64,000 nt of DNA, from NCBI RefSeq assembly GCF_041886205.1, contig NZ_CP169029.1. One strand, given 5' to 3'. The DNA is from Escherichia coli. Lineage in GTDB: Bacteria > Pseudomonadota > Gammaproteobacteria > Enterobacterales > Enterobacteriaceae. The position numbers were made by a program, and so were the translations under genes. Positions 62,111-62,156 of this stretch are shown in pieces. The notes under the pieces are model-generated. The model saw only the letters and a program-made list of their open reading frames with translations. It was not told the origin of the DNA and ran no database searches. Numbering within the stretch: the first letter of the stretch is position 1; every line of letters starts with the position of its first letter.

Positions 62111-62156
62111 ACAACGCATCAGGCATTCACGCGCCTGACGCGTCATCCGGCAATGC
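62111..62156. repeat. REP-like palindromic element between the convergent ddpF and osmC genes
   Basis: CGCATCAGGC ... GCCTGACGCG imperfect inverted repeat, internal palindrome TGACGCGTCA, and GCCGGATG / GCCTGATGCG REP-type motifs on the reverse strand. Confidence 0.4.

Follow-up and report, generated by a model that had tools for sequence, protein, structure and literature searches.

The short spacer between the convergent genes ddpF and osmC of Escherichia coli contains a palindrome with motifs resembling those of REP elements, and we wondered whether it is a genuine member of the REP family, a terminator that serves both genes, or an RNA element of a different kind. Throughout, "the window" denotes the whole 64,000-nt stretch of E. 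coli DNA that was analyzed. It is oriented as the reverse complement of MG1655, and K-12 coordinates are obtained as 1557056 + (62158 − window coordinate). Over 501 nt, it is 100% identical to LHM10-1; its identity to K-12 is 98.6%. An earlier note on this DNA had described a 55-bp spacer between two convergent stop codons, and its coordinates are correct, the flanking positions being 62102 and 62158:

61176–62102, plus strand: open reading frame, named ddpF in matching E. coli records
62158–62589, minus strand: open reading frame, named osmC in matching E. coli records
62100–62102, plus strand: ddpF stop codon TAG, at the end of the open reading frame
62158–62160 (62160–62158 on the minus strand), minus strand: osmC stop codon TAA, at the end of the open reading frame
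62103–62157, no strand: convergent ddpF-osmC spacer of 55 bp, from the sequence and the open reading frames

The length of this spacer varies: in CPE35 (L094:243-276, approximately window positions 62096–62112), a 17-nt tandem duplication of gctgtagagatgctaac across the ddpF stop codon extends it to 72 bp without disturbing the hairpin described below.

The nested inverted repeats and the two REP-type motifs that the earlier note had reported in the spacer were both recovered. The main repeat has 11-nt arms (62114–62124 and 62133–62143) that are complementary at 10 of 11 positions (91%) around an 8-nt loop, and the palindrome TGACGC/GCGTCA at 62136–62145 is nested within it. The two head-like motifs both read on the minus strand, in direct orientation. 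One of them, TGCCGGATG, is found across lineages, and GCCGGATG occupies 62151→62144 on the same strand. The other, GCCTGATGCG, is the sole exact match to GCCKGATGCG within the 64-kb window; it lies here in the 3' arm of the hairpin and not, as in a REP, at the outer head, and GCCTGACGCG is found on the plus strand at 62133–62142. The features of the element are as follows:

62114–62143, no strand: core DNA inverted repeat ACGCATCAGGC / GCCTGACGCGT with an 8-nt spacer, also foldable on the ddpF-sense strand
62144–62152, minus strand: REP-type "head" TGCCGGATG, from the sequence and the comparison across lineages
62115–62124 (62124→62115), minus strand: GCCTGATGCG motif, the same as the Z-type REP head, by consensus match
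62132–62147, minus strand: 5' arm of the 16-bp stem, GAUGACGCGUCAGGCG, in the minimum free energy and centroid structures
62126–62131, minus strand: hexaloop CGUGAA, from the fold and the haplotype comparison
62110–62125, minus strand: 3' arm of the 16-bp stem, UGCCUGAUGCGUUGUU, from the fold and the pair list derived from the sequence

Secondary structure in the spacer exceeds chance expectation, and it does so unequally on the two strands. The osmC-sense RNA of the 55-nt spacer folds with −27.8 kcal/mol (z = −4.2), a value equaled by none of 200 shuffled sequences, while the ddpF-sense RNA reaches −19.6 kcal/mol (z = −2.6), equaled by 2 of 200. In the osmC-sense RNA, the stem begins 10 nt past the osmC stop codon and is continuous over 16 bp (62147–62132 with 62125–62110), comprising 11 Watson-Crick and five G·U pairs, with a core of 12 bp. 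Because five of its pairs are G·U, this stem can form in the osmC-sense RNA only: in the ddpF-sense RNA these five pairs become mismatches, which leaves an 11-nt core whose stem carries a single A·C mismatch and a fold that is 8 kcal/mol weaker. An Rfam scan of positions 61800–62800 (E ≤ 10) returned two matches at chance level, none of them inside the spacer.

We then asked whether the palindrome belongs to the E. coli REP family. The REPs of this species are palindromes of 20–50 nt with a GTAG in front, present about 600 times per genome, and their transposase TnpA_REP tolerates no change in the GTAG and requires a conserved two-mismatch bulge (PMC8266576). An extragenic imperfect palindrome of the expected 20–50 nt is present (62114–62143 within the 55-bp spacer). 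High copy number, however, is not found: of 5,426 complete E. coli genomes, 5,405 contain the 55-mer at a single place each, whereas the 35-nt Y consensus, searched as a positive control with the same mode and threshold, matches at least 40 places per genome in 5,425 genomes, including exact 35/35 matches. One such exact match in other genomes falls at the position that corresponds to MG1655 5000-6500, where a REP/RIP element is annotated (NC_000913.3); the curated REP set of MG1655 comprises 355 elements. We also scored the element against the Y, Z1, and Z2 consensus sequences by end-to-end gapped alignment with a dynamic program, normalized per consensus position, taking as controls 11 REPs in two 50-kb K-12 loci (L092, L093) and as background the same loci. 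The element scored 0.83; the 11 true REPs reached 1.24–2.0, and the background went no higher than 0.87. The best ungapped match of the element to a REP consensus is 11 nt long. The comparison with the REP consensus that the earlier note had proposed therefore gives similarity at the level of motifs and, end to end, a score within background. Across the 64-kb window (1–64000) there is no canonical REP, and the top end-to-end score is the 0.83 of the element itself.

The finer anatomy of REPs is likewise absent. No GTAG or CTAC lies directly at the stem foot; the nearest GTAG, at 62098–62101, is 12 nt away from the foot at 62114 and overlaps the ddpF stop codon. The conserved two-mismatch bulge was not found in the stem on either strand, nor was a BIME arrangement, there being one hairpin only and no partner REP in inverse orientation. 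Compared with a REP, the hairpin is turned "inside-out", since its GCC(T/G)GA motifs sit beside the loop instead of at the outer foot. The osmC/ddpF pair is also not a REP pair among the entries listed in the supplements of a 2026 REP preprint. The spacer element is thus no canonical REP and falls outside the E. coli REP family. As it lacks both the abutting GTAG and the bulge, which are the two requirements of TnpA_REP (PMC8266576), targeting by RAYT transposases, which the earlier note had raised as a possibility, is unlikely.

A different picture of the relationship to REPs emerges from the neighborhood of osmC in other strains. Among the 5,426 complete E. coli genomes, a three-state structural polymorphism lies beside osmC. 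The arrangement of the window, ddpF-osmC (b), is found in 4,056 genomes; in 1,117 genomes, such as those of ST131 (L002:2856-3000), the 6.2-kb ddp operon is deleted and dosP adjoins osmC (c); and in 229 genomes (L091:7358-14151), a 6.8-kb 3-hydroxybutyrate island separates ddpF from osmC (a). The gene products of the island are a LysR regulator, the A and B subunits of a CoA-transferase, a thiolase, a GntP permease, and two dehydrogenases, one for 3-hydroxyacyl-CoA and one for 3-hydroxybutyrate. From the osmC stop codon through TGCCGGATGACGCGTCA, the three arrangements have the same sequence, and their comparison yields two breakpoints of homology:

62113–62114 (±1 nt), no strand: breakpoint between arrangements (b) and (c)
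62135–62136, no strand: breakpoint between arrangement (b) and the island arrangement (a)

Both structural polymorphisms, the presence or absence of the 6.8-kb island and the 6.2-kb ddp operon deletion, therefore break inside the palindrome, and since both breakpoints lie within the hairpin, the latter is a mosaic of three segments joined at indel breakpoints. In each rearranged configuration, the osmC stop codon is again followed at once by a stable hairpin. The hairpin of (a) reaches −18.8 kcal/mol and that of (b) −27.8 kcal/mol, while that of (c) ranges from −28.1 kcal/mol (centroid hairpin) to −30.5 kcal/mol (80-nt minimum free energy). In (a), a perfect 22-nt palindrome, GCCGGATGACGCGTCATCCGGC, follows the osmC stop codon; it is confined to this single locus and does not constitute a minor repeat family.

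Several details of these junctions could be traced. ST131-type strains retain a 25-nt ddpF remnant (L002:2975-2999, codons SQPDVIVL) that is 92% identical to approximately window positions 61651–61675 and is joined directly to the left arm of the hairpin, so the loss of ddp is a derived deletion; some 45 nt separate the remnant from the dosP-proximal spacer. The upstream GCCTGATGTG of these strains, which we had considered as an extra REP arm, is this same coding remnant. The island is flanked by direct repeats that are identical at 14 of 15 positions, GACGCGGCATCCGGC after the ddpF stop codon (L091:7358-7372) and GACGCGTCATCCGGC before osmC (L091:14152-14166). A simple deletion of the island between these repeats as the source of (b) was ruled out by the 33 nt beside ddpF, which have no counterpart in the island strain and for which no source was detected.

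The TGCCGGATG head recurs in the simple palindrome and in the REP-type elements that other E. coli lineages, another Escherichia lineage, and Citrobacter carry at this position. Palindromes of the GCCGGATG type occupy this site in a second Escherichia species-level genome labeled E. coli (L006) and in many Citrobacter species, some of them with a CTAC tail (L022), and it is the osmC-proximal half of the hairpin that matches these REP-type palindromes. Judging by a conserved 3' coding end, L006 and many Citrobacter would also share the same 3-hydroxybutyrate dehydrogenase gene as neighbor. Because related lineages carry REP-type GCCGGATG palindromes at the very same site, the hairpin is probably REP-derived: a REP-type palindrome would have been its foundation, of which a rearranged remnant persists in single copy. 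The term "REP-like" used in the earlier note can hence be kept in an evolutionary sense but not as a statement of family membership.

Beyond E. coli, we found that a hairpin follows osmC in nearly all of the Enterobacterales species compared. In 79 of 80 species, a single hairpin begins at most 36 nt past the osmC stop codon, at a median distance of 6 nt. The median free energy of these hairpins is −20 kcal/mol, compared with −14 kcal/mol for dinucleotide shuffles and −14.8 kcal/mol for coding controls (p ~1e-10), and −16 kcal/mol or lower is attained by 76% of the real sequences and, given the high baseline of a brute-force hairpin search, by 34–36% of the controls. Only 3 of the 79 species have at least five T in the 8 nt that follow. 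The hairpin sequences are unrelated between genera, and other genera carry REP-type elements of their own at the osmC site (L030, L058, L069). Within E. coli, all stem positions stay paired in six sampled haplotypes; six positions vary, three of them in the hexaloop, where 3 of the 6 positions are thus variable. One stem pair has changed on both sides, from G·U to C-G (L087), but as a single event in six haplotypes this covariation carries little statistical weight (it is reached in 84 of 500 shuffles), and paired changes in palindromes can alternatively arise by template switching.

Published 3'-end maps place this hairpin at the end of the osmC message, and three further features are relevant here:

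62109–62111, minus strand: in vivo osmC mRNA 3' ends (Term-seq; Adams et al. 2021, PMC7815308, Supplementary file 1)
61518, minus strand: Rho termination region, antisense within ddpF (Adams et al. 2021, Supplementary file 2)
62010–62109, minus strand: C-rich stretch right after the hairpin, candidate rut region (composition; model of Dar & Sorek 2018)

In MG1655, "primary" osmC 3' ends are reported at K-12 positions 1557105 (LB, OD 2.0) and 1557103 (M63), and no osmC end is listed for LB at OD 0.4 (PMC7815308). With modest read counts of about 1,600–2,100, these ends map to window positions 62109 and 62111, the former one nucleotide beyond the last pair of the 16-bp stem, whose foot is at 62110, and the latter one nucleotide inside it; relative to the 12-bp core, the ends lie 3 and 5 nt past the stem. 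Expression of osmC is induced in stationary phase and by osmotic stress, which would fit the conditions under which its 3' ends were seen. For ddpF, no 3' end is listed in any of the three Term-seq conditions (PMC7815308). The 3'-end mapping of both transcripts that had been suggested at the outset is thereby answered from published data for osmC, at the stem foot, and returns nothing for ddpF. The proposed role as an mRNA stabilizer or 3'-end element agrees, on the osmC side, with the position of these ends; the stabilization itself is what we infer from them.

Farther downstream, a bicyclomycin-sensitive Rho region has been reported at K-12 position 1557696 (+), with a Rho score of 7.8 and p = 4.9e-11 (PMC7815308). 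It corresponds to window position 61518 on the osmC-sense strand, about 590 nt downstream of the hairpin. The RNA terminated there would be osmC read-through, though it could alternatively derive from an antisense start inside ddpF. The first 100 nt past the hairpin have a C/G ratio of 1.4 in the osmC sense, and additional C-rich patches of the same sense were observed inside ddpF at 61760–61909 and 61460–61609.

How, then, should the element be read? That the element is a genuine REP/BIME unit of E. coli, recognized and mobilizable or cleavable by TnpA_REP, is suggested by its TGCCGGATG and GCCTGATGCG motifs, by an extragenic location between convergent genes, as is usual for REPs (about 30% of convergent spacers contain one), by its top rank among REP-consensus scores in the 64-kb window, and by the REP-type palindromes that Citrobacter carries there, some of which have a CTAC tail. 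The likeness to the Y, Z1, and Z2 units extends to a GGCG..TGAA..GCC top reminiscent of the Y unit and to the 3'-UTR effect as terminator or stabilizer, which is probably of the same kind (bioRxiv 10.64898/2026.03.23.713779). Yet the element is single copy and scores at background level, its motifs flank the loop, its only nearby GTAG belongs to the ddpF stop context, and the bulge and inverted partner are missing; it lacks four defining features of a RAYT-targeted REP, and we regard this reading as highly improbable. That it would instead be a bidirectional intrinsic terminator, ending the transcripts of both the ddp operon and osmC, is a role often proposed for palindromes between convergent genes, and a GC-rich palindromic hairpin in the middle of a 55-bp spacer, foldable on both strands, does recall intrinsic terminators, as do the UUGUU that succeeds its core stem in the osmC sense and the osmC 3' ends mapped a few nucleotides past that core. 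These, however, have a U-tract of about 7–8 nt within 0–2 nt of the stem, and here there is none on either strand: the tail past the stem is UUGUUAGC in the osmC sense (4 U of 8) and UCAUCCGG in the ddpF sense (2 U of 8), and a consensus terminator scan found no site within the spacer. The strong strand asymmetry of the fold is a further difference from such terminators, and the Rho region on the osmC-sense strand suggests that the hairpin is read through. With U-tracts missing, a weaker ddpF-sense fold, and no listed ddpF 3' end, bidirectional termination as proposed in the earlier note finds no support, and we consider it quite unlikely. Elsewhere, in the divergent bdm-osmC region, we noted a hairpin that resembles a terminator and has a T-rich tail (GCAGAAGTAATATTTTCTGC CTGATTTTAT), at window positions 62677–62696 on the minus strand. 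It lies some 90 nt upstream of the start codon of osmC and is possibly a chance occurrence or a leader structure.

The history of rearrangement at this site could also mean that the hairpin is a functionless scar, a by-product of REP-like palindromes that were joined as the ddp operon or the island was gained or lost. Two independent indel breakpoints inside the element, a three-segment mosaic whose parts differ in their distribution among strains, and 33 nt beside ddpF without a detectable source would all follow naturally. A scar, however, would not be expected to come with a stable post-stop hairpin in every configuration and in 79 of 80 species despite full turnover of the sequence, with in vivo 3' ends at the stem foot, or with six haplotypes in which the loop varies and no stem substitution is left unpaired, which makes this account unlikely in our view. 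It is tempting to speculate that the palindrome acts as a recombination hot spot or junction in addition to being an RNA element, with REP-type palindromes mediating the exchange of neighboring genes and selection on the osmC 3' end restoring a hairpin each time; we offer this tentatively, as something that may be so but that we would not presume.

The reading that we favor, and which we believe to be probably correct, is that the element is a 3'-terminal protective stem-loop, that is, a barrier to 3' exonucleases, of a largely Rho-terminated osmC mRNA, possibly serving as a weak terminator too, and built on the remnant of a rearranged REP-type palindrome. Stem-loops of this kind are known: Rho-dependent E. 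coli transcripts have precise 3' ends just past stable stem-loops without U-tracts, these ends are trimmed by PNPase and RNase II, rut sites lie just downstream, and annotated REPs account for only 24% of the stem-loops (Dar & Sorek 2018, PMC6061677). The osmC hairpin shares hallmarks of this class, being GC-rich, stable (−27.8 kcal/mol), soon after the stop codon, and devoid of a U-tract, with steady-state 3' ends directly at the stem (62109/62111 against a foot at 62110). The C-rich stretch that comes next and the bicyclomycin-sensitive region farther on would fit the class as well, provided that the latter reflects osmC read-through. As for differences, dependence on exonucleases and on Rho is only predicted for the osmC transcript, and the Rho region, some 590 nt from the hairpin, could stem from other antisense RNA.

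As we envisage it, osmC transcription on the minus strand would pass through the spacer, and the RNA would form the 16-bp stem that starts 10 nt past the stop codon. Because a proper U-tract is missing, much of the transcription would be expected to continue past the stem, antisense into ddpF, until Rho halts it a few hundred nucleotides on, and 3'→5' exonucleases would then trim the RNA back to the hairpin foot, setting the steady-state 3' end and shielding the message. Weak intrinsic termination at the UUGUU past the core stem may contribute a minor share. In a genome-wide study, terminal REP hairpins had no general effect on half-life, and in the literature we found no experiment on the osmC hairpin itself (deletion, half-life, or exonuclease mutants), nothing specific on osmC together with ddpF or on osmC with a terminator or Term-seq, and, in the TERMITe supplements, no entry for either gene. 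REP hairpins that begin no more than about 15 nt past a stop codon reportedly hinder translation termination and trigger trans-translation, as described by Liang, Rudd and Deutscher in 2015; by analogy, such an effect could apply to the osmC stem, as it begins 10 nt past the stop codon.

Since the class is known and the 3' end already stands in published supplementary data, the osmC stem-loop is an ordinary element, one more member of that class, and its significance beyond annotation is small. For annotation, the 3' UTR of osmC becomes defined, with a length of about 50 nt and a stem-loop at its end. The element also teaches that REP-type motifs by themselves are insufficient to make a REP, and its two breakpoints within one palindrome provide a small, testable case of palindromes at the junctions of strain-variable gene blocks. 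Across the Enterobacterales, osmC serves as a local example of a post-stop "hairpin slot" that is kept while the sequence filling it is turned over, being occupied by a REP in some genera and by unrelated GC hairpins elsewhere.
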